Shown in pieces: positions 36,972 to 59,012 of a stretch of DNA of 64,000 bases (its first letter is position 1; the number at the start of each line of letters is the position of its first letter). Under the pieces are notes generated by a model. The model was not told the origin of the DNA and made no database searches. It worked only from the letters and a program-made list of their open reading frames with translations. The position numbers and the translations under genes are program-made. This DNA is from an uncultured Candidatus Saccharibacteria bacterium. Its GTDB lineage: Bacteria; Patescibacteriota; Minisyncoccia; Phycocordibacterales; UBA12088. The stretch lies in assembly GCA_964567265.1 (NCBI GenBank), contig CAZMLK010000002.1, positions 138,813-202,812 on the forward strand, written 5' to 3'.

Positions 36972-37556
36972 TTACGCAATCTTCTCGAACCTTGCGGCGA
37001 TCGTCTCCATATTGAGCGCCGCGAGATACGCGTCGACATACTTCATCTTGTCGCCAGGAAGATAGTCGACCATATAGGCGTGCTCCCACACATCGAGGGC
37101 GACGACGACGGGAAGCGTGGCGAGCTGACCCTCGTCGTGATTGGTAACCCAGTTCATGTGGAGGCACTTCGCGATCGGATCGTAATTGAGGAGCGCCCAG
37201 CCGCTGCCGCGCGCGACGATCTTCTTGAATGACTCCTTCCAGGCATCCACCGATCCGTATTCGGCGATGAGGAGGTTCGAGAGCGGGCTTGCGGGTAGTA
37301 CTTTCGGGCCGCCTTCCAAATCCCCGAAATAGTATTCGTGGAGGCGCATGCCGTTGAACTCGAATCCGAGCCGGCGGCGGAGTTCCTGCATCAGGTGGCC
37401 GTTCTTCGCGGCATCCGCTCCGAGTTCCTTGAGTTCGTCATCGATCAGGTTCACGTGCTTCACGTAGCCCTGGTACAGCTTCACATGTTCCTCGATCTGC
37501 TTTGCGGAGACGCCGGGCACTTCGGGAAGTGTGAATATTTTGGCTTCGTATTTCAT
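36972..37556 (-). CDS. sod: Fe/Mn superoxide dismutase family protein (divergent N-terminus)
   Basis: 194 aa; C-terminal metal-ligand motif DVWEHAY, GWALL; N-terminal domain lacks the usual HHxKHH block. Confidence 0.8.
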   Translation of the reverse strand: MKYEAKIFTLPEVPGVSAKQIEEHVKLYQGYVKHVNLIDDELKELGADAAKNGHLMQELRRRLGFEFNGMRLHEYYFGDLEGGPKVLPASPLSNLLIAEYGSVDAWKESFKKIVARGSGWALLNYDPIAKCLHMNWVTNHDEGQLATLPVVVALDVWEHAYMVDYLPGDKMKYVDAYLAALNMETIAARFEKIA

Positions 37557-37596: not shown

Positions 37597-37628
37597 AGAA
37601 AAAAGCCAGGGTCCGGGTGGACCCTGGC
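37597..37628 (-). terminator. Intrinsic terminator (minus strand), copy 1
   Basis: GCCAGGGTCC-N4-GGACCCTGGC followed on the minus strand by TTTTTTCT; 41 nt upstream of the sod start codon. Confidence 0.75.
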
Positions 37629-37742
37629 AAGTAAGATCAGGGAGGCTAAACGTCTGGGAGGAGATAAGCACGCGGCAATGCGTGTGCCCCAAGTCATGTG
37701 AATGACCAGGTGGGCTTGAAGCCCAGGAACCGCAAGTCCACT
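37597..37742 (-). ncRNA. Candidate ~145-nt structured small RNA or sod leader/attenuator
   Basis: Minus-strand TTGACA (37772-37777), 17-nt spacer, TACAAA (37749-37754); several hairpins; ends at terminator copy 1; no ORF. Confidence 0.35.
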
Positions 37743-37808: not shown

Positions 37809-37837
37809 AAAAAGCCAGGGTCCGGAGGGACCCTGGC
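37809..37837 (-). terminator. Intrinsic terminator (minus strand), copy 2
   Basis: Same 10-bp stem GCCAGGGTCC/GGACCCTGGC, loop differs, TTTTT on minus strand. Confidence 0.7.
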
Positions 37838-37860
37838 AGTCAGTCGAGGAACTGGGAGGC
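37809..37860 (-). ncRNA. Candidate ~50-nt small RNA
   Basis: Minus-strand TTGACA (37891-37896), 18-nt spacer, TATGGT (37867-37872); transcript would run only about 50 nt into terminator copy 2; contains GCCUCCCAG. Confidence 0.3.
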
Positions 37861-38191: not shown

Positions 38192-39049
38192 ATGACATTC
38201 TCTCCGCTCCGGATTCGGATCGGCACACTCGCGCTCCTCGCCGGCGTGACCATTTTCATCTGGTACCTCGCGCTCCAGGCGACGTCCTCTCAGCTCACGG
38301 TCGCATTCCTCGATATCGGACAAGGAGATGCGATTTATATCGAGGGGCCGAACGGGAATCAGATTCTCATCGACGGCGGTGCGGACACCAAGGTGCTTGC
38401 CCGCCTCGGGGAGGTGATGCCGCTCGGCGACCGCTCGATCGATGTCGTCATCGGGACGCATCCAGACAAGGATCATATCGGCGGACTGCCTGACGTCTTG
38501 AAACGCTACGATGTTTCCTATGTATTCGAGCCCGGCATGGCGAATGATACGGCCGCATGGGACGCGTTCCTTCAGGCGATCGCGGACGAACACGCCGGGC
38601 ACATCATCGCGCGCCGGGGAATGGAGATCGATCTCGGACAGGGTGTCATGCTTTCGATATTGTTCCCGGACAAGCAGATCGCCGGCAAGGAGACGAACGC
38701 GGCTTCGATCGTCGCGAAGCTCTCGTATGGCGCCGTCGGCGTGATGCTGACTGGCGATGCGCCGCAGTCAGTCGAAGATCATCTTGTTACCTTGGATGGC
38801 GGGAATCTGAAAAGCGACATCCTCAAGGCAGGGCACCATGGATCGAAAACCTCAAGCGCTCCGCAGTTTCTCGATGCGGTCCGCCCGGCGTACGGGATCA
38901 TTTCCGCAGGGAAGGGAAATTCCTATGGCCATCCGCACAAGGAGGTCGTGAGCGCGCTCACGGAACGGAATGTGCGCACTCTGAGCACCATCGACAGGGG
39001 GACCATCATCTTTACTTCGGATGGGACGGCCGTCGCCTTACAGGAGTAG
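38192..39049 (+). CDS. Membrane-anchored MBL-fold hydrolase, ComEC C-terminal-domain-like
   Basis: 285 aa; N-terminal TM; FLDIGQGDAIYIE, GTHPDKDHIGG, GHHGS, typical of the ComEC beta-lactamase-like nuclease domain. Confidence 0.8.
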   Translation: MTFSPLRIRIGTLALLAGVTIFIWYLALQATSSQLTVAFLDIGQGDAIYIEGPNGNQILIDGGADTKVLARLGEVMPLGDRSIDVVIGTHPDKDHIGGLPDVLKRYDVSYVFEPGMANDTAAWDAFLQAIADEHAGHIIARRGMEIDLGQGVMLSILFPDKQIAGKETNAASIVAKLSYGAVGVMLTGDAPQSVEDHLVTLDGGNLKSDILKAGHHGSKTSSAPQFLDAVRPAYGIISAGKGNSYGHPHKEVVSALTERNVRTLSTIDRGTIIFTSDGTAVALQE

Positions 39050-40619: not shown

Positions 40620-41087
40620 ATGCGACGCCCACTCAAGAAAAAACTGACCGTAGCTCCGGATGTCATCTACCAGTCTGAAAAGGTAGCGAAATTCGTAAAC
40701 TCGATCATGCAGGACGGCAAGAAGGTTGCTGCCCGCAAGATCGTGTACGGCGCGCTCGACATCATCAAGGAAACGGATGGACTCGATCCTCTCGAAGTCT
40801 TCGAGACGGCGCTCCGCAATGTCGGTCCGTCTGTCGAAGTCCGCTCACGCCGCGTCGGCGGTGCCAACTACCAGGTGCCCCGCGAAGTCCGTCCTGAGCG
40901 CCGTTCAGCACTCGCGATGCGCTGGATCATCACCGCGGTCCGCGCAAAGAAGGGCGTGAAGACCGCAAAGTCCCTGGCCGAAGAACTCATCGCCGCATCG
41001 AAGAACGAAGGAACGGCCGTGAAGAAGAAGGAGGATACGCACAAGATGGCAGAATCGAACCGCGCGTTCGCTCACTTCGCCTGGTAA
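40620..41087 (+). CDS. rpsG: 30S ribosomal protein S7
   Basis: 155 aa; [22 protein letters not shown]-terminus. Confidence 0.97.
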
Positions 41088-41099
41088 TTTCACAAAATC

Positions 41100-41140
41100 A
41101 AAACAAAACCACGCCGGCTCCGCCGGCGGGGTTTTGTTTT
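41100..41140. terminator. Bidirectional intrinsic terminator
   Basis: AAAACAAAACCACGCCGGC-TC-GCCGGCGGGGTTTTGTTTT between rpsG and convergent orphan gene. Confidence 0.7.
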
Positions 41141-41154
41141 GAGACGCCAATCAA

Positions 41155-41994
41155 TTACTCTGCCTCCGCATGCACCTCGTGGATGCGCTCGACGTCATCA
41201 TGGAGCCGTGAGAGCCGCGGCCCGATCCGATCGACGAGCTCGCTTCCAAATACCACAAAGGGGACGAGATCCTTGCTCTGGAACAGTGTTCCGTTCTCGA
41301 TCACGTACATGCGCTTGTCGCGCATCTCGATCGAGTAGGCGCTCCCGCGATCGATGAGGAATTCCATGATCTCCGGCGTGAGGATTTCGAGTGCCTCGAT
41401 CTCCAGATCTTCAGCGACGTACAGGTTGAACCGCTTCGCGAATCCCGCATCCAGGGTCAGCGATTTGTGATAGGTGTCTGCAAGCGCCTCTCCCTCAAAA
41501 AACCGATTTTCCTCGAGGATGAGATCAGGCAGGGGACCACTGAAATCGAAGCAGCAGACGGTATAGAAATGGCTCTGGCTGTTCTTCCCGCTCCCGGTGG
41601 TGTACTGGAAATGGAACAGCTCGAAGGCAGTCGCCCCGTATTCACCGCTCACCACGTTCGCGATTGCACGGGAGTGACCCTTCTTAAAGAGCATGCTCGC
41701 GTAGGAATCGTCGAGGTCAGAGTACGACGCGTACTCAAAGCCGCACGCGTCGGCAAAACGGCGCATGGACTCTGCCTGGTACCGGCTCGCCCGGTAGCTC
41801 GCGTAGAGGAAGAGGGGAAGGAGGACTCCGTACAGGAACACGTTCAGCGGCTGGCCAAGCCCGAACAGCGAAAGGAAGAGTGCAATGACTCCGAGCACGA
41901 TCCCGATAAGCGCGATCTTCCGGAGTTCTCCGACCACCATGGCACGTGTCATATTCGCGGGGAATGATGCGCCGGGTTTGGGGCCGATTGGCAT
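41155..41994 (-). CDS. Hypothetical 2-TM membrane protein inserted between rpsG and fusA
   Basis: 279 aa; two N-terminal TM helices then soluble domain; TATACT -10 ends 10 nt before ATG. Confidence 0.5.
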   Translation of the reverse strand: MPIGPKPGASFPANMTRAMVVGELRKIALIGIVLGVIALFLSLFGLGQPLNVFLYGVLLPLFLYASYRASRYQAESMRRFADACGFEYASYSDLDDSYASMLFKKGHSRAIANVVSGEYGATAFELFHFQYTTGSGKNSQSHFYTVCCFDFSGPLPDLILEENRFFEGEALADTYHKSLTLDAGFAKRFNLYVAEDLEIEALEILTPEIMEFLIDRGSAYSIEMRDKRMYVIENGTLFQSKDLVPFVVFGSELVDRIGPRLSRLHDDVERIHEVHAEAE

Positions 41995-42073
41995 AGATAG
42001 CGTCAGTATAGGCTAATTGCGGATTTGGTAAATAAAGAAAGCGCCGGCCCGAATTTTCGGGCCGGCGCGGCGG

Positions 42074-42544
42074 CTAGCAGGTGCCAGAACAGATGTACAT
42101 GGCCATAAGTCTGTGGGACGTGCGCAAGGCGCGCTCACCGATTGCTGTCCCAGGATAGCGCTCGGAAAGATCCTTATAATACTTTGCCAGCTTCCAGAGC
42201 GACCTTCGCGCTTCTCCAAGGTGAACATAGAGGTCGATCTCAGGGAGACCGGCGTCGCCATTTCTCCCGTGTGGATCCCTCCAGGTTGTCGTTCTCAGGT
42301 GGATCGGTTTCGGCATCCCCCCGCGCCAAAAATAGAAATCGATGCGACGGCGGAGCAGGCTTTGGAGTGGACTTACGATGACCACTGTTTCCGGGGGTGC
42401 CGCCACCTTCGCGAGGAGGTCTTTGCAGAGAGCGATTCCCAAGCCGTCCATTTTGTCTAAGGATGCGGACTGGGCCCTCCATGTAATCAAATCGAGCTTG
42501 GGGCGATGATATCCCCTGAGGGAGGTGGTTGAGTTCGATGACAC
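42074..42544 (-). CDS. Hypothetical protein inserted between rpsG and fusA
   Basis: 156 aa, Trp/Arg-rich, no motif; minus-strand terminator hairpin (GCGCCGGCCCGAA/TTCGGGCCGGCGC) directly after its stop supports orientation. Confidence 0.4.
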   Translation of the reverse strand: MSSNSTTSLRGYHRPKLDLITWRAQSASLDKMDGLGIALCKDLLAKVAAPPETVVIVSPLQSLLRRRIDFYFWRGGMPKPIHLRTTTWRDPHGRNGDAGLPEIDLYVHLGEARRSLWKLAKYYKDLSERYPGTAIGERALRTSHRLMAMYICSGTC

Positions 42545-42699
42545 GCATGCGGCCTTCTCCTGATGCTCTGAGGTCTGTGAAGCAATCTCTCACAGCTCCT
42601 CTATATTGTCTATTTCCCGAATTTGATTTATAGTCCTCCTACAAGCGCAAAGCGCCTTTTTGTTTCTTATAAGCCGCCGCCTCATCATTTAGCACCACT

Positions 42700-44853
42700 A
42701 TGGAAGGAAGAGATTATCCGCTCGAGAGAGTACGAAACTTCGGGATCATCGCCCACATCGACGCCGGAAAGACCACCACGTCCGAGCGTATTCTGTATTA
42801 CACCGGCGAATCCCATAAGATCGGCGAGGTGCACGAGGGCGAGACGGTCACCGACTGGATGGAACAGGAGCGCGAGCGCGGCATCACCATCACTGCAGCG
42901 GCCATCACCTGCTTCTGGACCAAGACGGATGAGGATCCAGCAGACAAGGCCAAGAAGCAGCGCTTCAACATCATCGACACCCCGGGACACATCGACTTCA
43001 CCGTCGAGGTGAAGCGCTCACTCCGTGTGCTCGACGGCGCGGTCGTCGTCTTCGACGGCGTTGCCGGCGTCGAACCGCAGTCTGAGACCAACTGGCGCTA
43101 CGCAGACGAGGCAAAGGTGCCGCGTATCTGCTTCATCAACAAGCTCGACCGCACCGGCGCATCATTCGAGCGCTCGTACCAATCCATCCTCGACCGCCTC
43201 AACAAGAAGGCGGTCCGCATGCAGCTCCCGATTGGCGACGAGGATGCCTTCTCAGGCGTCATCGACCTCCTCAAGATGAAGGCATTCACCTTCACCGGCG
43301 AGCTCGGCAAGATCGTCGTCGAAGGCGAGATCCCTGCAAACATGATGGCCGAAGCGGAGAAGTACCGCGCAGAACTCATCGAGCGCATCGTCGAACACGA
43401 TGACGAGCTCATGAGCGGCTACCTCGAAGGGAAGATCCCGACGATGGAAGAACTCAAGAAGACGCTCCGGAAGGCAGTGATCGCGAACGATATCTTCCCG
43501 GTCTACACCGGCTCAGCGCTCAAGAACAAGGGCGTCCAGCTCGTCCTCGACGCGGTCGTCGACTATCTCCCGTCTCCCTTGGACATGCCGCCGGTCACAG
43601 GCATCAACCCGAACAACGGCGAGGCGATCGAGCGCCATGCGGATGATTCCGAGCCGTTCTCAGCGCTCGCCTTCAAGCTCCAGGCAGACCCGTTCGTGGG
43701 CCAGCTCACCTTCTTCCGTGTCTACTCAGGTACGATCGAAGCGGGTTCATATATCTACAATTCAACCACCGGCGACAAGGAGCGCCTCGGCCGCATCGTC
43801 CGCCTCCAGGCGAACGACCGCGAAGAAGTAAAGAAGGTCTACGCCGGCGAGATCGCCGCAGCCGTCGGGCTCAAGAACACCCGTACCTCGCACACGCTCT
43901 GCGACGAGAATGATCCGATCATCCTCGAAGAGATCGTCTTCCCGGAGCCAGTCGTGTCGCTTCGCATCGAACCGAAGACAAAGGCTGACCAGGAGAAAAT
44001 GGGCATCGCGCTCAAGAAGCTTTCCGATGAGGATCCAACCTTCCGCGTCACCTCTGATGCTGAGACCATGGAAACCATCATCGCGGGCATGGGCGAGCTC
44101 CATCTCGAGATCCTCGTCGACCGCATGAAGCGCGAATTCAACGTCGAAGCGAATGTCGGCAAGCCGCAGGTCGCGTACCGCGAGACCATCCAGCGCGAAG
44201 CCGAGGCAGAACACAAGTACATAAAGCAGACCGGCGGTCGCGGCCAGTACGGTCACGTGAAGATCCGCGTGAAGCCGATGGAAGCATGGCCGGAAGACAA
44301 GAAGATGCCAAACAACGTGAAGCGCGAAGATCACTTCGAGTGGATCAACAACATCAAGGGAGGCGTCATTCCGCAGGAATACATCCCGGCTGTCGAGAAG
44401 GGCGTGAAGGAAGCAATGGAGCGCGGTATCGTCGCCGGCTACAAGCTCGAGGATGTCTCATGCGAACTCTACGATGGCTCGTACCACGATGTGGACTCAT
44501 CCGAAATTGCCTTCAAGATCGCAGGATCCCAGGCGTTCCAGGAGGCAGCCAAGAAGGCGGGCGCCGTCATCCTCGAACCGATCATGCGCGTCGAAGTCGT
44601 CATCCCGGAGAAATTCATGGGCGACATCAACGGCAACCTTTCCTCGAAGCGCGGTCAGATCGAAGGCATGGAAGATCGCGGCATGCTCCGCGTCGTGAAG
44701 GCCAAGGTCCCGCTCTCCGAAATGTTCGGATACACGACGGCGCTTCGCTCCATGACGGAGGGTCGCGGTTCCATGACCATGGAATTCGACCACTACGAAG
44801 TGGTTCCGAAGAACGTCTCCGACACCATCGTCGCGGCACGCGGAGGGAAGTAA
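42700..44853 (+). CDS. fusA: Elongation factor G
   Basis: 717 aa; [21 protein letters not shown], full domain set. Confidence 0.97.
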
Positions 44854-44869
44854 CTCTGAATCAAACAAC

Positions 44870-44909
44870 ACAAAGCCGGCGCGAGCTTTGCTCGCGCCGG
44901 CTTTGTTTT
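44870..44909 (+). terminator. Intrinsic terminator of fusA
   Basis: AAAGCCGGCGCGAGC-TTTG-CTCGCGCCGGCTTT plus TTTT. Confidence 0.75.
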
Positions 44910-44920
44910 CACCCTCCATA

Positions 44921-44964
44921 CAAAAAACACCCCGGAAATTGGCTGAAAGCCAATTTCCGGGGTG
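44921..44964 (-). terminator. Intrinsic terminator of the minus-strand orphan gene
   Basis: CACCCCGGAAATTGGC-loop-GCCAATTTCCGGGGTG followed on minus strand by TTTTTTG. Confidence 0.7.
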
Positions 44965-44971
44965 CAAAGAC

Positions 44972-45406
44972 TCAAGCAATAATCCGCTTCCGCACCCTCT
45001 CAAAGTAGAGAAGAGAGGCGAGGAAAGTGGCGATGGTGGGGAGCATTGTTGCACCGATTATAAATCCAATCGGATCCTGTATTGCTTCTGTCCGAGTAGC
45101 CACGTTTACCCAGCTCAGGTGAAGCATTATGGATCCCACCGCAGCCACCAGCAAACTTAAGGCGATCTGCAGGAGAAAGGAGTCGCCCTCAACGACATAG
45201 TCAGCGATGACCAATGACGCGAAGACCAAGATCGTCACAATGAGGACTGTCGAGATAGCCCCTCCGCCGAGCTGCCACCCGGGCCGGTCCAAGACCACGG
45301 CCATGGTTTCTGGGGCACTGTTTCTGAGAAAGAGCACCAGCATCGTCAAGCAGGTGAGTATGCTGGCGATTAACGAGCGCACAAAAGCACCTCTCATTTT
45401 CGGCAT
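44972..45406 (-). CDS. Hypothetical 4-TM membrane protein inserted between fusA and tuf
   Basis: 144 aa, four hydrophobic helices, no motif. Confidence 0.5.
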   Translation of the reverse strand: MPKMRGAFVRSLIASILTCLTMLVLFLRNSAPETMAVVLDRPGWQLGGGAISTVLIVTILVFASLVIADYVVEGDSFLLQIALSLLVAAVGSIMLHLSWVNVATRTEAIQDPIGFIIGATMLPTIATFLASLLYFERVRKRIIA

Positions 45407-45506
45407 CCTTCCGTCGGTTCAGTACTCGTGCCAGCATGCCGGCGTCTCCGCGACGAATCAAGCCGTCCTCCGGGAGGGTACCGAAGCCTTCACCCCTGCC
45501 CGTTTA

Positions 45507-45535
45507 TTGACGTACCCCTTGCTTTCCGCTATTAT
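45507..45535 (+). promoter_or_regulatory. Candidate tuf promoter
   Basis: TTGACG, 17-nt spacer, TATTAT; implies about 170-nt leader. Confidence 0.5.
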
Positions 45536-45709
45536 CTCGCTACCGCAGTTGTTGCGTCCTTTTTTGTCATTGGACCTTGTCATTTGGAGGGCCTTGGGAG
45601 AAAGGGAGGTAGAAAAGGTGGTAGGTGTTCATTATAAATCGCTACCGTCTCGAATTGAGCCCTGGTTCTCGCGCGCTCATACGGGACAGTAGCCAAACAA
45701 GAAAATCAT

Positions 45710-46909
45710 ATGGCAGGTACATTCGATCGCTCGAAGCCCCATGTCAACGTCGGCACCATCGGCCACGTCGACCACGGCAAGACGACCCTCACAGCCGGCA
45801 TCCTCCACGTGCTCCACATGGCGGGGAATGGCTTTGGCGCATCCGAGAAGGGTGTTGACCAGATTGACAACGCGCCTGAAGAAAAGGCACGTGGTATTAC
45901 GATTTCGCTCTCGCACTCTGAGTACGAGACCCCGAACCGTCACTACGCGCACATCGACGCGCCAGGTCACGCTGACTACATCAAGAACATGATCACGGGC
46001 GCAGCCCAGATGGACGGTGCGATCCTCGTGGTCGCAGCGACCGACGGCATGATGCCCCAGACGCGCGAACACGTCCTCCTTGCAAAGCAGGTTGGCGTGC
46101 CTCGCATGATCGTCTTCATCAACAAGGTGGACATGGTCGAAGACCAGGACCTCGTTGACCTCGTCGAAGAGGAAATCCGCGACCTTCTCACGAAGCAGGG
46201 TTTTGATGGCGCAAACGCACCGATCATTCGCGGTTCAGGCCTCAAGGCCCTCGAATCGAAGTCGGTTGACGATCCGTACGCTCAGAAGATCATCGAACTC
46301 GCAAAGGCACTCGATGAATACATCCCGATGCCGGTTCGCGAGACTGAGAAGCCGTTCCTCATGCCGATCGAAGACATCTTCTCGATCGAAGGACGCGGTA
46401 CCGTCGTTACCGGACGCATCGAGCGCGGCCAGGTGAAGGTGGGCGAGGATGTTGAAATCATTGGCCTCCAGCCAACCGCGAAGACGACCATCACGGGTAT
46501 CGAAATGTTCAACAAGCAGCTTGATAGCGGTATGGCAGGCGACAACGCCGGCATCCTCCTCCGCGGAACCAAGAAGGAAGACGTGCACCGCGGACAGGTC
46601 CTCGCAAAGACGGGATCAGTTACGCCGCACACTGAATTCGAGGCAGAAGCATACATCCTCAAGAAGGAGGAAGGAGGCCGCCACACGCCGTTCTTCACCG
46701 GTTACAAGCCGCAGTTCTATGTCCGCACCACGGACGTGACGGGCGACGTGACCCTCCCAGAAGGTGTTGAAATGGTCATGCCAGGCGACACCACGAAGTT
46801 CAAGGTGAAGCTCGTCGCACCAATCGCGCTCGAAGAGCAGACCCGTTTCGCCATCCGCGAGGGCGGCAAGACGGTCGGTGCAGGCGTCGTCACCAAGGTG
46901 ATCGCCTAA
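45710..46909 (+). CDS. tuf: Elongation factor Tu
   Basis: 399 aa; [25 protein letters not shown]. Confidence 0.98.
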
Positions 46910-46958: not shown

Positions 46959-47339
46959 ATGGCAACGAAAGAAACTACAGAAGCTCCGAAGCGCGCCAAG
47001 CGCGCGGCGAAAGCTGTCAAAGGAGTTGAAGCCGTCTCCAAGCTCCGCATTCGCGTGCGCGCCTATGAGCACAAGCTCCTCGACGCATCCGTAAAGCAGA
47101 TCATGGACACCGCGCTTCGCTTCGATGCCACCATCGTCGGTCCGATCCCGCTTCCGACGGAAATCAAGAAGTACACGGTGAACCGCGCCGCATTCGTCTA
47201 CAAAGACGCGCGAGAACAATTTGAAATGCGAGTGCACAAGCGCCTCATCGACATCCTGAATCCGTCCGCGAAAGTCATCGAGTCCCTGACCAACCTCACC
47301 CTCCCATCCGGCGTCAACATCGACGTCAAGATGGTTTAG
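46959..47339 (+). CDS. rpsJ: 30S ribosomal protein S10 with Lys/Ala-rich N-terminal extension
   Basis: 126 aa; core KLRIRVRAYEHKLLD...GPIPLPT; about 25 extra N-terminal residues. Confidence 0.95.
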   Translation: MATKETTEAPKRAKRAAKAVKGVEAVSKLRIRVRAYEHKLLDASVKQIMDTALRFDATIVGPIPLPTEIKKYTVNRAAFVYKDAREQFEMRVHKRLIDILNPSAKVIESLTNLTLPSGVNIDVKMV

Positions 47340-47384
47340 GTAAAAGGAGTCAAACAAAAAATCCCCTCACGGGGATTTTTTGTT
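47319..47384 (+). repeat. rpsJ 3' end plus terminator, repeat copy 1 (native)
   Basis: ATCGACGTCAAGATGGTTTAGGTAAAAGGAGTCAAACAAAAAATCCCC-TCAC-GGGGATTTTTTGTT. Confidence 0.85.
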
Positions 47385-47426
47385 ACACTATGGAGGATTT
47401 CTTTTACATACTAACCGTTCAATCTC

Positions 47427-48131
47427 ATGTCAGAAGGATTCCACGAGGCGAGTGCAGAAAAATCACCCAAGGAGGCATTTACAGAAAAATTCCTTGATCA
47501 GCCTTACGGGAACCTGACAGAAGAACAGCAGGCGATGCTTCGTACGCATGTTGAGGGGCGGGAGGGTCCATGGACAACGGTGCCGAACATATTCGATGTA
47601 ACTTGGGATGATGAAGCGAAACGGATTGTCATCGAGCTGTCTGAGGGAGGAAGCCAAACGTTTATATACGACCCCTTCGTGCCGAAGGTGCCACAAGCTG
47701 CACCACCTGTAGAATCAAGAGGAGACTCCGAGCCGAGTGGCGCAGTAAAAGTCGGGGAAGAACCCGTCTCAGTTGTGACTCAGAGCAACGAGGCGTTGCG
47801 CACCGTGATCCCTGGCGGGGAATGGATCGATTTGTCTGGGAAAAAGATCGTAACCGATCAGGCTGGCTTGTATTCAGGCAAAGAACTGGTCATGAAAACG
47901 GGTGCCGCGAACACGATGAATTTTGTCGGCAAATATAATTTCCACGAGGGAACGATGATCGTTGGAGGGCCCGATGGCTCACTGCACGCGGCTCCGTACT
48001 CGGCAGAGAGAGAGGAGGCGCTCAAAAGCGCAGGGTACAAGCAAGAGTTCGAGCTGGTGCCGAGTTTAACAGGTCATCAAAGGTTCGAAGACGAGGAGAC
48101 CCAGAGGGTATTTGAAGCGCTAAAAAACTAG
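47427..48131 (+). CDS. Hypothetical protein (cassette 1 of rpsJ-rplC island)
   Basis: 234 aa, acidic, no TM, no motif; flanked by repeat copies 1 and 2. Confidence 0.45.
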   Translation: MSEGFHEASAEKSPKEAFTEKFLDQPYGNLTEEQQAMLRTHVEGREGPWTTVPNIFDVTWDDEAKRIVIELSEGGSQTFIYDPFVPKVPQAAPPVESRGDSEPSGAVKVGEEPVSVVTQSNEALRTVIPGGEWIDLSGKKIVTDQAGLYSGKELVMKTGAANTMNFVGKYNFHEGTMIVGGPDGSLHAAPYSAEREEALKSAGYKQEFELVPSLTGHQRFEDEETQRVFEALKN

Positions 48132-48191
48132 CTTCACTCTTCCTAGAAGTCAGGCGCTTCACGTGCGGGTGTTCTGTGTCACGGTACCGGA

Positions 48192-48272
48192 ATCGACGTC
48201 AAGATGGTCTAGGCGAAGGAGTCAAACAAAGAATCCCCCCAAGATAATTTCTCTAGGGGATTTTTTGTTTTT
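48192..48272 (+). repeat. rpsJ 3' end plus terminator, repeat copy 2
   Basis: ATCGACGTCAAGATGGTCTAGGCGAAGGAGTCAAACAAAGAATCCCC...GGGGATTTTTTGTTTTTT; by eye 4 substitutions and one 1-nt indel over 48 nt versus copy 1. Confidence 0.85.
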
Positions 48273-48401
48273 TAAGAAAATAGAGATTCCGCAGAAAGGG
48301 AGGATCGGATCAAATAGAGACATTGACAAATCTATTATATGTGGTATATAATACCGCCAGATAAAGTCCTTCAATCATCGCGCTTCGGACGGAGAAAACC
48401 C

Positions 48402-48866
48402 ATGCGCCTTTCCTTGATTCTGGCCTTCGTACTCGGTCTCCAGAGCGGTTTTGTCGGCAATTCTGCTCACGCAGAGATTGCGACACCCGCCGATCTGCCC
48501 GCAGACTATGCTACCTGGCAAACGTTGCATGAACTCTCTTGTGAACCGCTGTCGATCAAAGTGTATTCGACAATCACGCCGGATGCCGAGATGGAGCTTC
48601 TGACCTACACCCTCGGCAAGAATCTGGTCGCGTACTCGATGTCATCATCCACAAATGCTGGCAAGGTAATCACCGACCATGGCCTCTACAAAGGGGAATG
48701 GAAATCGGTCGATGGCACCGATGCCAATAAGGAGAAATCGGAGCGTCTCGTGAATGCCGCCCTTCTCGATAACGGTGGACAGCCTGCTCTCGTTGCGTTC
48801 GGCCAGTGTAAGCAGGAGCTTGTGCGTAAAATCATAAAGGCTTTCTTTGCACCACTTGGCAGGTAA
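48402..48866 (+). CDS. Hypothetical secreted protein (cassette 2)
   Basis: Start at MRLSLILAFVLGLQSGFVGNSAHA (signal peptide, AHA-E cleavage site likely); own terminator CCCCCAGTCCA-CGC-ATGGACTGGGGG plus T-run. Confidence 0.5.
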   Translation: MRLSLILAFVLGLQSGFVGNSAHAEIATPADLPADYATWQTLHELSCEPLSIKVYSTITPDAEMELLTYTLGKNLVAYSMSSSTNAGKVITDHGLYKGEWKSVDGTDANKEKSERLVNAALLDNGGQPALVAFGQCKQELVRKIIKAFFAPLGR

Positions 48867-48951
48867 AACGGAGCCCATTGCATCAGTGTGTGTTCCTCGC
48901 CGTTGATACCCGCCCCCAGTCCACGCATGGACTGGGGGCTTCATTTTTTTG

Positions 48952-48969
48952 CCTCATGGGGATTTTTTG
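48952..48969 (+). repeat. Partial third copy of the rpsJ terminator right half
   Basis: CCTCATGGGGATTTTTTG versus CCTCACGGGGATTTTTTG at 47365-47382 (17 of 18). Confidence 0.6.
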
Positions 48970-49155
48970 ATTTTTGTTGAAAATAGAAAAAGCCGAAATG
49001 CGCTGTTTCGGCTTTCTTCCTCGTGCATGAGGGTCACGGGTTCGGTGGTTAGTATAGTCTGCCACGAACAGGCATTGGTACAGCTTCTCATTGGACGTAG
49101 CGTTGCTAAAGCAAAAGAAAATCGCTGCGGGCCCGATGGTCCGCAGCGACATCCG

Positions 49156-49767
49156 TCATGCGCTCTGAGGGAATGAGGGCGTCAGAGTGGTGCGACGTCC
49201 CCAGAGATACATACAGAGGAGGATAAGTCCCGAAACGACGAGCAGGATCCCGCCAATTGCAGGGATGAGCCATGCTTGGCGCGTTCCGTCCGAATAGAAA
49301 TCGAACGTGAGATTTTCTCGGTCAACGCGCACTTTCCCCACGTAGGTGAAAAAAGTGTAGTCAGGAAGTGGCACTGCCGCGCTGATGTAGGTCGATAGGC
49401 CGTTCTCCAGCCTGACCAATGCGGTATATTCGACCACCCCATGGAGACCTTTGCCGTCCATGCTCCCGTCGTCCCGCCACCCATTCTGGATTACCACGAA
49501 TGTTGGAACGCTATTCCCCGTTCGTTGCTGAAAATCCTGCATTGGCAATTCTGCCGAAGGCGTACCGTTCTCGAAGGAAAGCACGCTGAGGGTCGTTGAA
49601 TTGTTCGGCTTCCACAACTCGACGTGTATCGGATCAGGCATAGGACTTGCAGTCCATCCAATCAGCATCCATGCACCGAGGGCAAAAATGCCCAGAGGCC
49701 ATCGATAGGTTTTCCACGCACATTTCAGTATCTTTCGAAACGGCTTTCTCTTCGAATTACCAGTCAT
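49156..49767 (-). CDS. Hypothetical membrane protein with N- and C-terminal TM helices (cassette 3)
   Basis: ORF 49156-49803; start tentatively at MTGNSKRK; TM1 WPLGIFALGAWMLIGW, TM2 LIPAIGGILLVVSGLILLCMYLW. Confidence 0.45.
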   Translation of the reverse strand: MTGNSKRKPFRKILKCAWKTYRWPLGIFALGAWMLIGWTASPMPDPIHVELWKPNNSTTLSVLSFENGTPSAELPMQDFQQRTGNSVPTFVVIQNGWRDDGSMDGKGLHGVVEYTALVRLENGLSTYISAAVPLPDYTFFTYVGKVRVDRENLTFDFYSDGTRQAWLIPAIGGILLVVSGLILLCMYLWGRRTTLTPSFPQSA

Positions 49768-49915
49768 CTTCCATGCTCCATGGATAGAGTGAACCCACGC
49801 CACCGTACCATCCGATCTTCAAAATGTAAATAAATATCTTCGCCCTCTGTGCGTAGACCGAGGGCTCCGTCGTTCCATGGTTCCTGAAAGCCGTTTGGTG
49901 CTATGCTACGGAGTC

Positions 49916-50377
49916 ATGAAGCAGAAGCTGAAAGCGCTATTCAAGTTCGCCTCCCCGGCCATCCTGCTGGTATTCCGGACGTACTACTTCATCTTCCGCC
50001 CGAAGGGGGAGAGCGTGAAGTGCGTGATCCGGAACGGTGGCAACATCCTCCTCATCCGCAATTCGTACGGCGCGAAGTTCTGGACGCTTCCCGGTGGCGG
50101 CGTGAAGTCGAGCGAGACCCTGGAACAGGCGGCCGTCCGCGAAGCACATGAGGAAGTCGGCATCGAGATCCGCGAGCAGGACCTCACCAAGCACGGCAAG
50201 GTGCGCTACCTCCTCGACTTCCGCCGCTCCACGGTCTGGGTGTTCAGCGTCACGGTGCCGTCTCCCGCATTCCACCTTCATGGCGTCGAGATCGAGGAAG
50301 CGAAGTGGTTTCCCGAGAACGCAATCCCCGGCATGCGCTCGCATCTCCTGGAACGTTTCCTCGATTTGGCGAAATAA
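49916..50377 (+). CDS. NUDIX hydrolase (cassette 4)
   Basis: Start at MKQKLKAL (TGcTATGCT ends 8 nt upstream); Nudix box GGGVKSSETLEQAAVREAHEEVGI. Confidence 0.8.
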   Translation: MKQKLKALFKFASPAILLVFRTYYFIFRPKGESVKCVIRNGGNILLIRNSYGAKFWTLPGGGVKSSETLEQAAVREAHEEVGIEIREQDLTKHGKVRYLLDFRRSTVWVFSVTVPSPAFHLHGVEIEEAKWFPENAIPGMRSHLLERFLDLAK

Positions 50378-50433
50378 CCGACCGATTTTAGAGTCGGTAT
50401 TGACTATGAAATTAAATTCGTCATGCTGGCACA

Positions 50434-51069
50434 ATGACTAGGTCCACAGAGGAATCACTTGAAATCATCTCAAACCAATTTGTCGTGAAGCGTCGGTTTA
50501 CCACGGGTACATTCAACCTTATATTGGGTGCGGTACTAGGCGCCACTTTGACTTTTTTAGTAGGAGCTATTAATTCTTACATCTCCAACCAAACCTTACG
50601 TCAAGCGGTTGCAAAGAGCATCTACATTGAAATTGAGCATAATAAAATTTTTTTAAATAGCTCTGTATCTGATTTAAACAGCGCAGTTTTAGATTGGAAA
50701 GGCAACAAAGGAAATAAATTAAATATGCAAGTATTCGCCCTGCATAGAGAAGACTTCTACCAAATTTATCTCCAAGATTTAACTCTATTAGATAAAAACA
50801 CTCTAGATGAAACCTACGAATTTTACGGAAGACTTAGGACCATTGATTACCTAACAAAATTAATCACTGATGATTTTGATCTCTATTACAGAAATGAAAA
50901 TCTAATTTCTAGAGCTGATATCTTGTCCCGACTAATGGAATTACAGCAGGATGTGGATGAGGCGCTTCGGAATGCTGACAAAATCCAAAGAGATTTAATT
51001 ACTAAATATGATGTTAACAGTGTTCAGAGTTCCTGTAATCCAACCAATTGTCTAACAAACTCTTGGTAA
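50434..51069 (+). CDS. Hypothetical single-TM protein, strongly AT-rich gene (cassette 5)
   Basis: 211 aa; TM FNLILGAVLGATLTFLVGAI then Asn/Leu/Asp-rich helical region; composition clearly unlike flanking genes. Confidence 0.45.
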   Translation: MTRSTEESLEIISNQFVVKRRFTTGTFNLILGAVLGATLTFLVGAINSYISNQTLRQAVAKSIYIEIEHNKIFLNSSVSDLNSAVLDWKGNKGNKLNMQVFALHREDFYQIYLQDLTLLDKNTLDETYEFYGRLRTIDYLTKLITDDFDLYYRNENLISRADILSRLMELQQDVDEALRNADKIQRDLITKYDVNSVQSSCNPTNCLTNSW

Positions 51070-51075
51070 AGAGAG

Positions 51076-51104
51076 TTGCATCCTTTCAGACCTTCCTGTA
51101 TAGT
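51076..51104 (+). promoter_or_regulatory. Candidate rplC operon promoter
   Basis: TTGCAT, 17-nt spacer, TATAGT. Confidence 0.45.
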
Positions 51105-51110
51105 CCATTT

Positions 51111-51249
51111 ACTCTCGTTCTGAGAGATTCTATGTCCCAATAGGGACCAATGGACTGAAATCCGCAAGGGATTCGTCCTTGGCGGTATTTTTAATACCAA
51201 AAACGATCAAAAGACGGTAGAAATCTTCAAAAAACCTATAAAACTCAAC
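51111..51249 (+). promoter_or_regulatory. Structured 5' leader of rplC-rplD-rplW-rplB (possible r-protein autoregulatory leader)
   Basis: Four consecutive hairpins: CTCTC/GAGAG, GTCCC-AATA-GGGAC, AATCC-GCAA(G)-GGATT, GGTATT-TTTA-ATACC. Confidence 0.3.
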
Positions 51250-51861
51250 GTGAAATTCATCCTCGGCACAAAAGAAGAAATGACGCAGGTCTTCGATGAG
51301 AAGGGCGTCGTCCACGCAGGAACCATCCTCAATGCAGGTCCTTTGACCGTCACCAAGGTCCTCACCAAGGACTCTGACGGATATGAGGCAGTCCAGGTCG
51401 GATACGGCGTCCGCAAGGAAAAGCATGCATCGAAGCCAGTCATGGGCCAGACCAAGGCGTTCGGTATCTTCCGGACCCTCAAGGAGTTCCGCGATGTCGA
51501 GGGCATGACCGCAGGCGACAAGATCGATGTCTCGGTCTTTGCCCCAGGCGACACCATCCAGGTCTCAGCGATCTCGAAGGGTAAGGGCTTCCAGGGCGTC
51601 GTGAAGCGTCATGGTTTCCATGGCGGTCCGCGTTCGCACGGCCAGAAGCACTCCGAGCGCTCCCCGGGTTCTATCGGCGGCGGCGCGCGTGCCGGAGGCC
51701 GTGTCGCGAAGGGCATGAAAATGGGTGGCCGCATGGGTACTGACCGCGTCACGGTCAAGAATCTCAAGGTGCTCGTTGTCGATGCTGCCGCGAACACCAT
51801 CATCGTGTCAGGAGCCGTTCCGGGTCGTCGCGGAACGCTCGTTGAAGTAGTTTCAAAATAA
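51250..51861 (+). CDS. rplC: 50S ribosomal protein L3
   Basis: 203 aa; GTG start; KGKGFQGVVKRHGFHGGPRSHG. Confidence 0.96.
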   Translation: MKFILGTKEEMTQVFDEKGVVHAGTILNAGPLTVTKVLTKDSDGYEAVQVGYGVRKEKHASKPVMGQTKAFGIFRTLKEFRDVEGMTAGDKIDVSVFAPGDTIQVSAISKGKGFQGVVKRHGFHGGPRSHGQKHSERSPGSIGGGARAGGRVAKGMKMGGRMGTDRVTVKNLKVLVVDAAANTIIVSGAVPGRRGTLVEVVSK

Positions 51862-52998: not shown

Positions 52999-53841
52999 AT
53001 GAAGACCTACAAGCCAACAACACCGTCGCGCCGCCACATCTCGAATCCGAACTACAAGGAGCTTTTGTCTGCGACGACTCCGCACAAGGCGCTCACGAAG
53101 GGACGGAAGCGGAACATGGGCCGCAACAAGGACGGACGCATCACCACCCGCCACAAGGGAGGAGGCAGCAAGCGCCGTTTCCGCGATGTGGATTTCCTCT
53201 ACTCCAAGAAGGACATCGTCGCGAAGATCGAGAGCATCGAATACGATCCGAACCGTACTGGCTTCATCGCGCTCGCGCTCTATGCTGACGGAACCCGCTC
53301 GTACGTCCTCGCACCGAAGTCTCTCAAGGCCGGCTCAACCTTCCTCGTTTCAGAGAAGGCCAAGATCCAGCCGGGGAACCGCCTCCCGCTCGCGAATATC
53401 CCGGTTGGTACCTTTGTGTACAACCTCGAGATCAAGCCGGGAAATGGCTCGAAGATGGTCCGCTCAGCAGGAAACTACGCTGAGGTCATTGCGCAGGACG
53501 GCATTTATGCCCTCGTGAAGATGCCATCGACCGAAGTTCGCAAGTTCCTCGGAAGCGCATGGGCATCGGTTGGTGAGGTCTCAAACGATGAGCACCACCT
53601 CGCGAATGTCGGAAAGGCAGGACGCTCACGCAACAAGGGTATCCGCCCAACGGTTCGCGGTACTGCCATGAACCCAGTCGACCACCCACACGGAGGCGGC
53701 GAAGGAAAGTCTGGACGCGGTCACCGCCGCGCACGCTCTCTCTGGGGCAAGCCGACCGGCAAGGGTCACAAGACTCGCACGCCGAAGAAGTACTCGAACC
53801 ACCTCGTCGTTTCTCGCCGCAAGGTTGGAAAGAAGAAATAA
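52999..53841 (+). CDS. rplB: 50S ribosomal protein L2
   Basis: Start at MKTYKPTTPSRR; RGTAMNPVDHPHGGGEGK. Confidence 0.96.
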   Translation: MKTYKPTTPSRRHISNPNYKELLSATTPHKALTKGRKRNMGRNKDGRITTRHKGGGSKRRFRDVDFLYSKKDIVAKIESIEYDPNRTGFIALALYADGTRSYVLAPKSLKAGSTFLVSEKAKIQPGNRLPLANIPVGTFVYNLEIKPGNGSKMVRSAGNYAEVIAQDGIYALVKMPSTEVRKFLGSAWASVGEVSNDEHHLANVGKAGRSRNKGIRPTVRGTAMNPVDHPHGGGEGKSGRGHRRARSLWGKPTGKGHKTRTPKKYSNHLVVSRRKVGKKK

Positions 53842-53859
53842 GATCAAGACACGGGAAGA

Positions 53860-53898
53860 AACAAAAGGGCCGCGCGAACGCGCGGCCCTTTTGTTTTT
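53860..53898 (+). terminator. Intrinsic terminator after rplB
   Basis: AAAAGGGCCGCGCG-AA-CGCGCGGCCCTTTT plus GTTTTT. Confidence 0.75.
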
Positions 53899-53913
53899 GA
53901 TTGGAAATGATCA

Positions 53914-53957
53914 TAAAAAGATGAAGCCGCCGGCGTGCGTACGTGCGCCGGCGGCTC
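53914..53957 (-). terminator. Intrinsic terminator of the minus-strand cassette
   Basis: GCCGCCGGCG...CGCCGGCGGC hairpin, followed on minus strand by TTCATCTTTTTA. Confidence 0.65.
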
Positions 53958-53980
53958 TTCAATTACACCCGGAAGGGGAG

Positions 53981-54262
53981 CTATCTTTTGCCGTTCTCGG
54001 CCGATAGCAGAAACGCCGTCTTGTCGTTGCGGACGGGACGCGCAGTCATCCTGTTGCCTGTAAGGGCTGCTAGGAGACGCGCAATCTGCTGGAGCTGGCC
54101 TTCGTCGGCGATCGTCACATCAGAACGCATTCCATCCACCAAAAGGTAGATTTGATTATTGCCCCTCATGATGAGCAGGGTGCCGCCGGGAGCCGAGACA
54201 ACGTCCCCCTCTTGGGGTGCTGTGGATCCGAGCTCACCATTGCATCTCAGTTCACATGCCAC
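53981..54262 (-). CDS. Hypothetical protein inserted between rplB and rpsS (gene B)
   Basis: ORF 53981-54289 begins at TTG; start tentatively at GTG 54262, 8 nt after AGGAAGG; no motif. Confidence 0.4.
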   Translation of the reverse strand: MACELRCNGELGSTAPQEGDVVSAPGGTLLIMRGNNQIYLLVDGMRSDVTIADEGQLQQIARLLAALTGNRMTARPVRNDKTAFLLSAENGKR

Positions 54263-54343
54263 AATTAGTACCTTCCTGCAGTTTTCCAAGTGACATTAAG
54301 AAGCAATCTGACGATTTGTCAAATTTCTTCTTTAGGGAAGCCC

Positions 54344-54381
54344 TAAAAAGATACGCCCCCGAGCTGCTCTGCAGCTCGGGG
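54344..54381 (-). terminator. Intrinsic terminator between the two cassette genes
   Basis: CCCCGAGCTGC-AGA-GCAGCTCGGGG followed on minus strand by GCGTATCTTTTT; a TTGACA box follows. Confidence 0.6.
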
Positions 54382-54390
54382 TACGTGTGT

Positions 54391-54765
54391 TCAGTAGGGG
54401 AGGGTCATTTCTCCCTGACGCGGCATCTGTGGTTCAAGAGGGACGGAGGACTTGAGCTCCTTCAGCTTGCAAACAAGCCTGAACGCCCTACCTATTTCCT
54501 GCGCCATGCGGTACTTCTGCTTGCCCTTCAGCAATATCGGCGTTTCCAAATAGAAGCTTGCTTCTGCCCTGGACCAGAAACAACGTCGTACCCGTTTCCG
54601 GCCAAGTATCCTGATGGCAACCGCAATTGCCACGGCTTCGAAGTAAGGACGCTCGACAACATAAAGCCCTTTGCACCGGATGAGGAGAAACTCGCAATTG
54701 GTCGTGGCATCTCGGCACCCAAAGTCGCGAACGCTCACGCGCTTGGGGGAAAACGCCTTGGTCAT
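54391..54765 (-). CDS. Hypothetical basic protein inserted between rplB and rpsS (gene A)
   Basis: 124 aa, Arg/Lys/Cys-rich, no motif securely recognised. Confidence 0.45.
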   Translation of the reverse strand: MTKAFSPKRVSVRDFGCRDATTNCEFLLIRCKGLYVVERPYFEAVAIAVAIRILGRKRVRRCFWSRAEASFYLETPILLKGKQKYRMAQEIGRAFRLVCKLKELKSSVPLEPQMPRQGEMTLPY

Positions 54766-54861
54766 CCACTTTCCTCCAGAAAAGGCGGTAAAGAACAGCC
54801 GATATTAAAAACTCTATACGCCAATCTGTCAAGGGTAAGGAAAGAGGAAAGCGCCTTTTGT

Positions 54862-58126: not shown

Positions 58127-58660
58127 ATGGAAATGGTTCAGGAAAAACAGAATAGCGCCTTCGCAACCCTCAAGGGAGATTTCGGATACACGAACAAGAT
58201 GCAGTCACCGAAGCTCGTGAAGGTGGTCATCTCGGTCGGAACCGGCTCAAACAAGGATAAGGAGAAGATCAAGGTCATCGAGAACCGCCTGCCGAAGATT
58301 ACAGGCCAGAAGGCTGCACAGCGGACGGCGAAGAAGGCTATCGCCTCATTCAAGACACGCACCGGCATGGTGATCGGCTACCAGGTGACGCTCCGCGGCC
58401 AGCGCATGATGGACTTCCTCAACAAGCTCATCCACGTCGCCCTCCCGCGTACGCGCGACTTCCGCGGCCTCTCCGCAAAGTCTATCGATGACATGGGCAA
58501 CTACACCCTCGGCATCAAGGAGAACACCATTTTCCCAGAGACATCGGACGAAGACTTGAAGGATGTGTTTGGTCTCGCGATCACGATTGTGACGACTGCG
58601 AAGTCGAAGCCGGAAGCAGAAGCCTTCCTCCGCCACATCGGCATGCCGCTTCAGAAATAG
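58127..58660 (+). CDS. rplE: 50S ribosomal protein L5
   Basis: 177 aa; YTNKMQSPKLVKVVISVG, ALPRTRDFRG. Confidence 0.96.
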   Translation: MEMVQEKQNSAFATLKGDFGYTNKMQSPKLVKVVISVGTGSNKDKEKIKVIENRLPKITGQKAAQRTAKKAIASFKTRTGMVIGYQVTLRGQRMMDFLNKLIHVALPRTRDFRGLSAKSIDDMGNYTLGIKENTIFPETSDEDLKDVFGLAITIVTTAKSKPEAEAFLRHIGMPLQK

Positions 58661-58679
58661 ACCCAGAAATTTTAAAGAA

Positions 58680-58986: not shown

Positions 58987-59012
58987 TCATTCACGCTAGG
59001 AGCTGGTAACGT

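Follow-up and report, generated by a model that had tools for sequence, protein, structure and literature searches.

Repeated rpsJ tails and terminators as candidate insertion scars in a Paceibacteria ribosomal-protein gene cluster

The rpsJ to rplC interval and its repeats

The DNA analyzed here, a 64-kb stretch from a member of the Patescibacteria (hereafter the window), carries a ribosomal-protein gene cluster in the order fusA, a minus-strand 144-amino-acid (aa) gene, tuf, rpsJ, five inserted genes, and rplC-rplD-rplW-rplB. Our subject is the interval between rpsJ and rplC, in which the 3′ end of rpsJ and the terminator behind it are repeated around inserted genes. The rpsJ gene itself (46959–47339, plus strand), encoding ribosomal protein S10 (126 aa; Pfam Ribosomal_S10, E = 2.8e-31), is intact. 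It is followed by a 234-aa orphan (47427–48131, plus strand) and a 154-aa orphan (48402–48866, plus strand), the first and second added genes, and by a membrane-anchored orphan of 161–215 aa that, together with its terminator (48987–49017), occupies 48987–49803 on the minus strand. A Nudix hydrolase gene (49877–50377, plus strand; Pfam NUDIX, E = 5.9e-19) and a 211-aa orphan (50434–51069, plus strand) complete the set, and the right-hand conserved border is formed by the rplC leader and rplC (51070–51861, plus strand; Pfam Ribosomal_L3).

Three plus-strand copies of the rpsJ end are present. Copy 1 (47319–47389) is the functional one and consists of the last 21 nucleotides (nt) of rpsJ including the stop codon (ATCGACGTCAAGATGGTTTAG, 47319–47339), an 18-nt spacer, and the intrinsic terminator AAAAAATCCCC-TCAC-GGGGATTTTTT. 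Copy 2 (48192–48272) consists of a relic rpsJ tail (48192–48212), the spacer, and a terminator with a 16-nt loop, and it now serves as the terminator of the 234-aa gene. Copy 3 (48952–48987; CCTCATGGGGATTTTTTGATTTTTGTTGAAAATAGA) is only half of a hairpin, namely a loop and right arm, followed by a linker. Folding gave −21.0 kcal/mol for the copy 1 hairpin (z −5.8) and −21.5 kcal/mol for that of copy 2 (z −4.0), both being A/T-flanked terminators.

The second occurrence of ATCGACGTCAAGATGGTTTAG, at 48192–48212, has 1 mismatch, and there is no other in the window, where 0.01 such matches are expected by chance. A gapped alignment of 47319–47366 with 48192–48238 was 43/48 identical (89.6% over 48 columns) and extended through the spacer into the left arm of the terminator; the 4 substitutions, the single 1-nt indel, and the offset of 873 bp that an earlier note on this DNA had counted by eye were all reproduced. 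Only 4 direct repeats in the entire window reach that alignment threshold, the rpsJ-tail pair among them. Moreover, GGGGATTTTTTG occurs on the plus strand solely at 47371, 48256, and 48958 (0.17 expected), the last position lying in copy 3. The stretch CCTCATGGGGATTTTTTG in the latter (48952–48969) is 17/18 identical to copy 1, as previously noted, and we found that copy 3 goes on to match, in register, what comes behind copy 2 for a further ~18 nt, to 48987 (GGGGATTTTTTG.TTTTT.T..GAAAATAGA), an extension that the first reading had overlooked. Because copies 1 and 2 have in common 21 nt of coding sequence, the stop codon, and the 18-nt spacer, their similarity goes beyond generic features of terminators, to which it might otherwise have been confined. 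Independent assemblies (L001–L007, L009), derived from six or more sequencing runs, contain the same structure with differences in sequence, which rules out an assembly artefact. The rpsJ-tail repeats are real and non-random.

Strain alleles and the two novel joints

The strains compared are nine short contigs (L001–L009) from independent sequencing runs, retrieved by exact-protein look-up with S10, which is 100% identical in all of them, while their DNA is 96–100% identical to the window. Among 185,579 species genomes the best S10 match was 78–88% identical, placing the organism in the Patescibacteria class Paceibacteria, and, given that the best match is this distant, a genome of the same species is missing from that set. 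Further look-ups with the Nudix and P0006 proteins returned no additional contigs, those with rplC, tuf, and P0002 returned no record, and a metagenome scan for ATCGACGTCAAGATGGTYTAGG gave 0 matches.

Four different gene sets lie between rpsJ and rplC in these strains of identical S10. L002, L005, and L007 have the arrangement of the window. In L001, the 234-aa gene, the minus-strand gene, and the Nudix gene are present and the 154-aa gene is not, and a HATPase_c/DUF4325 gene occupies the slot of the low-GC 211-aa gene. L003 and L004 contain the 234-aa gene, the second added gene in a 152-aa version, and the Nudix gene, but lack the minus-strand membrane-protein gene; after the Nudix gene they carry a small gene for a protein with two transmembrane segments (2-TM) and a minus-strand 356-aa gene, which in L003 together take up the slot of the 211-aa gene. 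Finally, L008 has none of the inserted genes; its rpsJ, with a single tail, spacer, and terminator, is separated from the rplC leader by just one gene, which is unrelated and lies on the minus strand. At the right border, the sequences rejoin that of the window at 51070 (L008), 51108 (L001), and 51123 (L003). The relic tail accompanies the 234-aa gene in every strain that has the latter, while L008, the relative free of the insertions, has one tail only; together with the alignment above, this means that neither outcome named in the earlier note as refuting its claim was observed. Alternative cassettes and empty-site alleles, which the earlier note had proposed as checks on its claim of serial gene capture, were thus both recovered: L001, L003, and L008 hold other gene sets in the interval, L008 is without the inserted genes and L001 without the 154-aa gene, and these empty-site alleles bear out the footprint of serial addition.

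The L001 sequence was informative for the second insert. Specifically, it has the relic tail and spacer, one undivided terminator, and directly thereafter TTTTGAGTTTTGTTGAAAATAGAAAAAGCCG, found in the window just behind copy 3, and on this comparison L001 reads as the empty-site allele for the 154-aa gene. The relic terminator of L001 (CCGCCAGCAATGGCGG; CCGCC-AGCAAT-GGCGG) and the functional one behind rpsJ in L008 share one allele, while copy 1 in every insertion-bearing strain is the CCCC-TCAC-GGGG allele. Its different terminator allele shows that L001 did not arise from the window arrangement by deletion alone. Furthermore, since the L001 relic matches L008 and copy 1 differs, copies 1 and 2 look like two alleles circulating in the population, one incoming and one resident, and not like one duplicated sequence.

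A novel joint was found at each of the two inserts. That of event 1 lies at 48189–48192, where an internal segment of the Nudix gene, followed by GA, abuts the rpsJ tail 21 nt before the end of the gene (rpsJ −21). The segment at 48140–48189 (plus strand) aligns to the Nudix interior at 50210–50260 with 37/50 identities and a local score of 18.5, compared with 11 for the next best alignment anywhere in the window on either strand and a maximum of 13.5 in 2000 shuffles. It fills most of the 60-nt gap that separates the 234-aa stop codon from the relic rpsJ tail, is present in L001 and L003 as well, and lies ~2 kb upstream of its source, the Nudix gene. Because this joint links two points of one locus, it points to an origin of the added DNA in a homologous locus, of a related strain or a sister chromosome, and not in a foreign element with its own termini. 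The description of the added genes as foreign open reading frames (ORFs), in the sense of discrete cassettes, is therefore one that we do not retain.

The joint of event 2 lies at 48951/48952, where the T-run of the 154-aa gene's terminator meets the loop of another terminator. In the window and L003, the copy 2 terminator is split: its left arm is at copy 2, and the loop, right arm, and linker that belong to it make up copy 3. The block between them starts with a right arm and linker of its own and holds a promoter, the 154-aa gene, and a strong terminator. As L001 shows the same terminator undivided, copy 3 corresponds to the displaced part of the copy 2 terminator, and the repeats together read as two nested insertion scars. 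No joint was detectable on the left side of either insert. Both inserts therefore have a joint between non-homologous sequences on one side only, as expected of homology-facilitated illegitimate recombination (HFIR), where such joints show 0–10 bp of microhomology, or of a single crossover.

The two added genes are lineage-restricted orphans. Among 5.8 billion clustered proteins, only near-identical homologues of the 234-aa and 154-aa proteins were found, and no other genomic context. Pfam and PADLOC searches returned no match for the 234-aa protein, which is encoded with an atypical GC skew, and PADLOC found nothing beyond a generic Nudix match; an AlphaFold2 model of this protein built without an alignment reached a predicted local distance difference test (pLDDT) score of 43.9, which is uninformative for fold. 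The ratios of nonsynonymous to synonymous polymorphism (pN/pS) against L003 were 0.17 for the 234-aa gene and 0.28 for the 154-aa gene, making the former probably a real gene and suggesting the same of the latter. The 154-aa protein has an N-terminal signal-like segment, and its gene is preceded by a consensus sigma-70 promoter (48323–48352, plus strand; TTGACA-18-TATAAT, 12/12 match) and followed by its own predicted intrinsic terminator (48912–48950, plus strand), with a 12-bp stem, 9 GC pairs, and a T run; the fold energy of 48905–48975 is −31.3 kcal/mol.

Other features of the interval vary among strains or mark its border. The minus-strand gene is absent from L003 and L008. The 211-aa gene has 33–39% GC, compared with 55–62% for its neighbors, and is compositionally foreign by this measure. 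The 180 nt upstream of rplC (51070–51249) are kept in the window, L001, L003, and L008, whatever adjoins them upstream, and form stem-loops, the last of which is a terminator-like hairpin with a T run (51165–51190); this segment may be a leader or attenuator of the rplC operon.

Insertion hotspots and tail relics across Paceibacteria

The conserved genes of the str, S10, and spc clusters were located in 80 Paceibacteria loci from ~75 species (L010–L089). Only five junctions were expanded, by up to 8 kb, namely rpsG|fusA, fusA|tuf, rpsJ|rplC, rplB|rpsS, and rplE|rpsN, and each of these measured at least 1 kb at 24–67% of loci. The other 16 junctions had medians of 5–26 nt (105 nt for tuf|rpsJ) and never reached 1 kb. 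The rpsJ|rplC gap ranged from 9 bp to 6 kb in the 76 loci in which it was measured, and was at least 1 kb in 21 of them. In the window, all five junctions are expanded and contain orphan genes (41087–42700, 44853–45710, 47339–51250, 53841–54858, and 58660–59667). The boundary between the rpsJ and rplC operons is a permissive, hypervariable insertion hotspot across Paceibacteria, with variable content between the same conserved gene pair in many genomes, as in core-genome hotspots described elsewhere. Literature searches found no account of an interrupted ribosomal cluster in the Candidate Phyla Radiation (CPR).

We searched 208 expanded gaps for a second copy of the last 45 nt of the upstream gene, using reverse complements as a control (99th percentile, 12.5). 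Tail relics were present in ~5 of the 208, so that ~97% of expanded gaps had none, a rarity expected of illegitimate joints that are randomly placed and seldom hit the upstream gene. One of the clear cases is the rpsJ relic of the window lineage itself. In L079, an exact 16-nt rpsJ relic follows a small gene equipped with a promoter and a terminator. In L077, a 65-nt fusA relic follows a block containing HicA, its encoded end being GAKA* and the new end GVK*. The relics in L017 and L035 comprise 30 nt of fusA and 82 nt of rplE, respectively. Among the strains of the window's species, L003 has an extra relic, 50 nt of the Nudix tail, after the small 2-TM gene inserted there. Boundaries and lengths vary among the events and no common motif was recognized. 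Additionally, a second relic was sought beside the other tail relics (L077, L079, L017, the Nudix relic of L003, and copy 3), and nothing rose above background.

Relic 5′ heads of downstream genes were rarer than tail relics, with one borderline case matching rplC at 27/36 positions in L036. Located at L036:11299–11334, 2.6 kb 5′ of the real start, it may be what is left, in degenerate form, of a ribosome-binding site and initial codons of rplC, and would mirror the tail relics.

A 45–55-nt duplication in L048 was rejected as a scaffolding artefact since it flanks runs of N, as were those in L047, L069, L075, and L088. The perfect 55–86-nt repeats around these runs (L048:2438–2647, L047:7923–8132, L075:10948–11157, L069:1846–2069, and L088:632–1418) are unmerged scaffold overlaps in public metagenome-assembled genomes (MAGs); they mimic tail duplications and would contaminate automated searches for scars.

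Several further observations concern the content of hotspot gaps. A structured element of ~95 nt with two hairpins occurs in three species (L035:18877–18976, L035:13375–13472, L017:1586–1687, and L060:7625–7722), with compensatory changes at 12 of 26 predicted pairs across the four copies and no match in Rfam. Both L035 copies follow GGCGGAGCGT and lie between long direct repeats (82 nt, 100% identical; 33 nt, 94%). The element is absent from the window. Mini-cassettes at L003:3860–4195 and L079:4693–5096 each have a promoter, a gene for a ~60-aa 2-TM protein with an FFGG motif, and a terminator, and each is followed by the relic of the upstream gene's tail (Nudix in L003, rpsJ in L079). Homology of the two 2-TM proteins was considered and not established, the similarity being weak (41% over 49 aa; pairwise E = 3e-5). 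Directly after the relic rpsJ tail of L079, a DUF559 gene (Vsr-like endonuclease fold; L079:5097–5598) lies between ~40-nt inverted repeats and is possibly a small mobile unit. In L017, three tandem terminator modules, each preceded by CA(T/C)TCGGA, follow rpsJ (L017:5483–5760), and a 45-nt sequence starting with the stop codon is found again 195 nt further on, the space between being free of genes.

The rplB|rpsS gap (window 53898–54790; L001:7631–8060; L003:8206–9149) has two minus-strand gene slots with a conserved 115-nt linker (54281–54395) between them. The slots contain unrelated or hyper-divergent alleles, the 124-aa protein of the window being 32% identical to the 119-aa protein of L003, while the flanks are ~94% identical.

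Origin of the scars

No dedicated recombination machinery was found. Pfam searches revealed no recombinase, integrase, transposase, or resolvase in the five genes of the interval, among 30 larger ORFs from across the window, or within comparable inserts found elsewhere, in agreement with the earlier statement that no integrase, transposase, or attC-like element is visible. There were no terminal inverted repeats at the ends of the inserts, and the duplications, of ~66 nt and ~30 nt, differ from the short target duplications of fixed length made by transposons. The direct repeats (47319–47384, 48192–48272, and, in part, 48952–48987), which include the target gene's 3′ end, are as in integrase-borne islands and cis-mobilizable elements (CIMEs), but a constant core or crossover site is lacking, given that the boundary falls at rpsJ −21 in the window and at −16 in L079 and the other events share no motif. 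Nor is the locus an integron, having no integrase and repeats that are an rpsJ tail and terminator instead of attC. Rfam searches of the window, L017, and L035 returned one tRNA only, in the window. The window does encode ComEC (a Competence-domain gene and a separate metallo-beta-lactamase (MBL)-domain gene), PilB, a pseudopilin, and RecJ, and from this gene content the host appears able to take up and recombine DNA.

The two ComEC parts are split, with Competence/DUF4131 at 35420–36925 and the metallo-beta-lactamase part at 38192–39049. A 194-aa minus-strand ORF (36972–37556) lies between them, as does a 210-nt stretch with near-identical minus-strand terminator hairpins at both ends (37600–37629 and 37809–37838), a promoter-like TTGACA inside, and no Rfam match, which could be a small RNA gene.

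We consider it fairly probable that the copies are the junction scars of two successive additive recombination events, each homologous on one side and illegitimate on the other. The donor of event 1 would have been a homologous locus arranged as rpsJ, terminator, 234-aa gene, and further genes up to Nudix, having entered, we infer, by natural transformation. Its left side would have found a homologous partner on the resident chromosome, within rpsJ or further upstream; the right end, where a break had cut through Nudix, would have undergone illegitimate joining to the resident strand at rpsJ −21. The same product would arise if a recircularized fragment integrated by one crossover. In this way, the incoming allele would be added, not swapped, rpsJ would end in the incoming tail and terminator (copy 1), and the resident tail and terminator would be displaced downstream as a relic (copy 2) behind a truncated piece of Nudix, most of which would have been deleted later. 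The resident flank would be kept as a relic, not replaced, because the right end was joined upstream of where homology ends. Event 2 would be of the same kind, the incoming allele comprising terminator, linker, promoter, 154-aa gene, and terminator, and its right end joining inside the loop of the resident copy 2 terminator, such that the loop, right arm, and linker were left as copy 3. As a by-product, every added gene would inherit or keep a terminator and rpsJ would stay intact. The divergence of copies 1 and 2 in terminator allele, one being common to L008, fits a related donor. The order of the later deletions is a reconstruction.

Several points weigh against this account. Transforming DNA enters the cell single-stranded, making the circular single-crossover variant awkward. 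The donor allele (rpsJ, terminator, 234-aa gene, and Nudix with no relic) was not recovered and is itself inferred, and nine short contigs are the only sample of the population. The 16-nt loop of copy 2 is unexplained by the model, and the difference in copy 2 terminator allele between L001 and the window and L003 calls for additional recombination between strains. In L035, the two 82-nt repeats on either side of a non-coding 100-nt element are 100% identical and resemble a true target duplication more than an allele pair. Lastly, classical HFIR usually deletes recipient DNA and does not duplicate it (PMC3240628).

Of the other explanations, a chance similarity of generic terminators or an assembly artefact has a negligible probability in our view. 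A/T-flanked GC hairpins recur in any genome, and some tail duplications in public MAGs are indeed artefacts (L048 and the others that flank N runs), but coding sequence and spacer are common to the copies, independent assemblies repeat the structure with substitutions, and the region contains no run of N. A more substantial alternative, though an unlikely one, is a plain tandem duplication inside a single genome. Here, unequal exchange or template switching between sister chromosomes would have connected rpsJ −21 with Nudix +384, and reciprocal deletions would then have divided the genes between the units, the left one keeping the 234-aa gene and the right one the others, with no need of incoming DNA. 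The joint between the Nudix interior and the rpsJ tail is exactly like that of a tandem duplication, the 4–10% divergence of the copies is no larger than the synonymous divergence among strains (pS 0.06–0.21), so that they could have been identical at birth, and the L035 repeat is 100% identical. At least three events would be needed, however (the duplication and two precise deletions), the two units have no sequence in common beyond the terminator, and L001 has different terminator alleles as copies 1 and 2, one of which is identical to that of the insertion-free L008. Nor does duplication by itself explain a 154-aa gene with its own promoter and terminator inside a terminator loop.

Site-specific integration by a trans-acting recombinase, of the tyrosine or Xer type, that uses the tail and terminator of rpsJ as its att site would make the segments non-autonomous elements accreted in tandem, like cis-mobilizable elements beside integrative and conjugative elements (ICEs) or Xer-dependent elements. 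Three tandem direct repeats with the 3′ end of a conserved gene are its classical signature, and the rpsJ tail was independently duplicated in L079; yet we find it scarcely credible, in view of the lack of a recombinase in the interval, in 30 larger ORFs of the window, and in comparable inserts, the variable boundaries, the fusA, rplE, Nudix, and bare-terminator events with no shared core, the resident gene fragment at the right end of the insert, the ~97% of expanded gaps that have no relic, and the L001 sequence, which is unlike the product of recombination between copies 2 and 3. Of the earlier suggestion of site-specific or homology-driven insertion, it is thus the homology-driven part that stands. 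A long target-site duplication of 16–82 nt, arising through a staggered double-strand break or replicative template switching, possibly with small mobile sequences, would accommodate the varying repeat lengths and is the better fit in L035, where the repeats around the structured element are 82/82 identical and the second copy of the element also lies between 33-nt direct repeats; small 2-TM protein genes of similar type precede the relic tails in L003 and L079. For the window we rate it as quite improbable, since the copies there look like different alleles, the insert ends in a Nudix fragment and not in an element terminus, insert ends are not conserved across events, and the structured element is absent. 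Broader still, and highly doubtful at present, is a Paceibacteria process, either recombinase-independent or encoded in trans, that inserts self-contained mini-cassettes and ~95-nt structured elements at gene 3′ ends or terminator hairpins with target duplications of 16–82 nt. If real, such a process would add a new kind of mechanism to those that move DNA, with the rpsJ repeats among its products and the five ribosomal hotspots as the places where it preferentially inserts.

The proposed additive recombination has parallels in known systems. In HFIR, known from Acinetobacter, Streptococcus pneumoniae, Pseudomonas stutzeri, and Escherichia coli, the other end is joined with little or no homology, and a single crossover of a recircularized fragment with truncated homology duplicated 109–950 bp of the locus around the insert in E. 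coli (PMC3240628). Homology on one side, a joint lacking it on the other, and the absence of a dedicated recombinase are common to these cases and the window, which also has DNA-uptake genes. The window events differ in being natural and ancient, known only from their scars, in the short duplicated homology (~30–66 nt), in adding to the recipient DNA that HFIR mostly deletes, and in a probable donor that is an alternative allele, not foreign DNA. The E. coli pangenome has integration hotspots between the same core gene pairs, mostly with no integrases, and spread by homologous recombination of the flanks was proposed for them (PMC2617782). There, too, gain and loss are confined to a few fixed junctions with strain-specific content and no integrase, but the hotspots of the window are inside the ribosomal-protein supercluster of a reduced CPR genome, their cargo is 1–5 small orphans, and relic copies of the flank record the stacking of alleles.

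There are other likenesses as well. The direct repeats with the target 3′ end, the intact target, and serial repeats bracketing successive segments recall ICEs and CIMEs, yet the window has no integrase in cis or nearby and no constant core, the boundaries vary, and the insert ends in a resident gene fragment. Genomic islands, ICEs, and CIMEs integrate into the 3′ ends of tRNA or protein genes, with tandem accretion, an example being ICESt1 and a CIME at fda in Streptococcus thermophilus. Mobile ORFs of fungal mitochondria, such as that in atp6 of Allomyces, bring a replacement C-terminal piece and leave the original as a downstream relic. Similarly, at rpsJ an incoming 3′ end would have replaced the resident one, whose tail survives as a pseudogene fragment after the insert, but the fungal inserts encode homing endonucleases that drive the event and those of the window encode no nuclease. 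Integron arrays are likewise tandem series of small, strain-variable genes, mostly promoter-less or self-contained, between repeated sequences that contain hairpins, although the window lacks intI, attI, and attC, and its repeats are the end and terminator of the neighboring gene.

The locus is a well-documented further example of a known process, an integration hotspot with scars of illegitimate, additive recombination. CPR bacteria, or Patescibacteria, have small genomes, few recognizable mobile elements, and many orphans, and their gene gain is poorly documented. The locus provides a readable record of it: alleles with and without the inserts, two scars one upon the other, and a joint from which a homologous locus is identified as the source. 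The record speaks for imprecise recombination, guided by homology and plausibly supplied through DNA uptake, as the process that stacks new strain-specific genes at the boundaries of operons. The five junctions are predictable places for strain-variable genes, possibly for host interaction, and a caution for tools that assume a contiguous block of ribosomal proteins in CPR bins.

Elsewhere in the window, two adjacent minus-strand ORFs (11196–11641) contain 81–85% identical segments ~250 nt apart and look like a tandem pair of paralogues.

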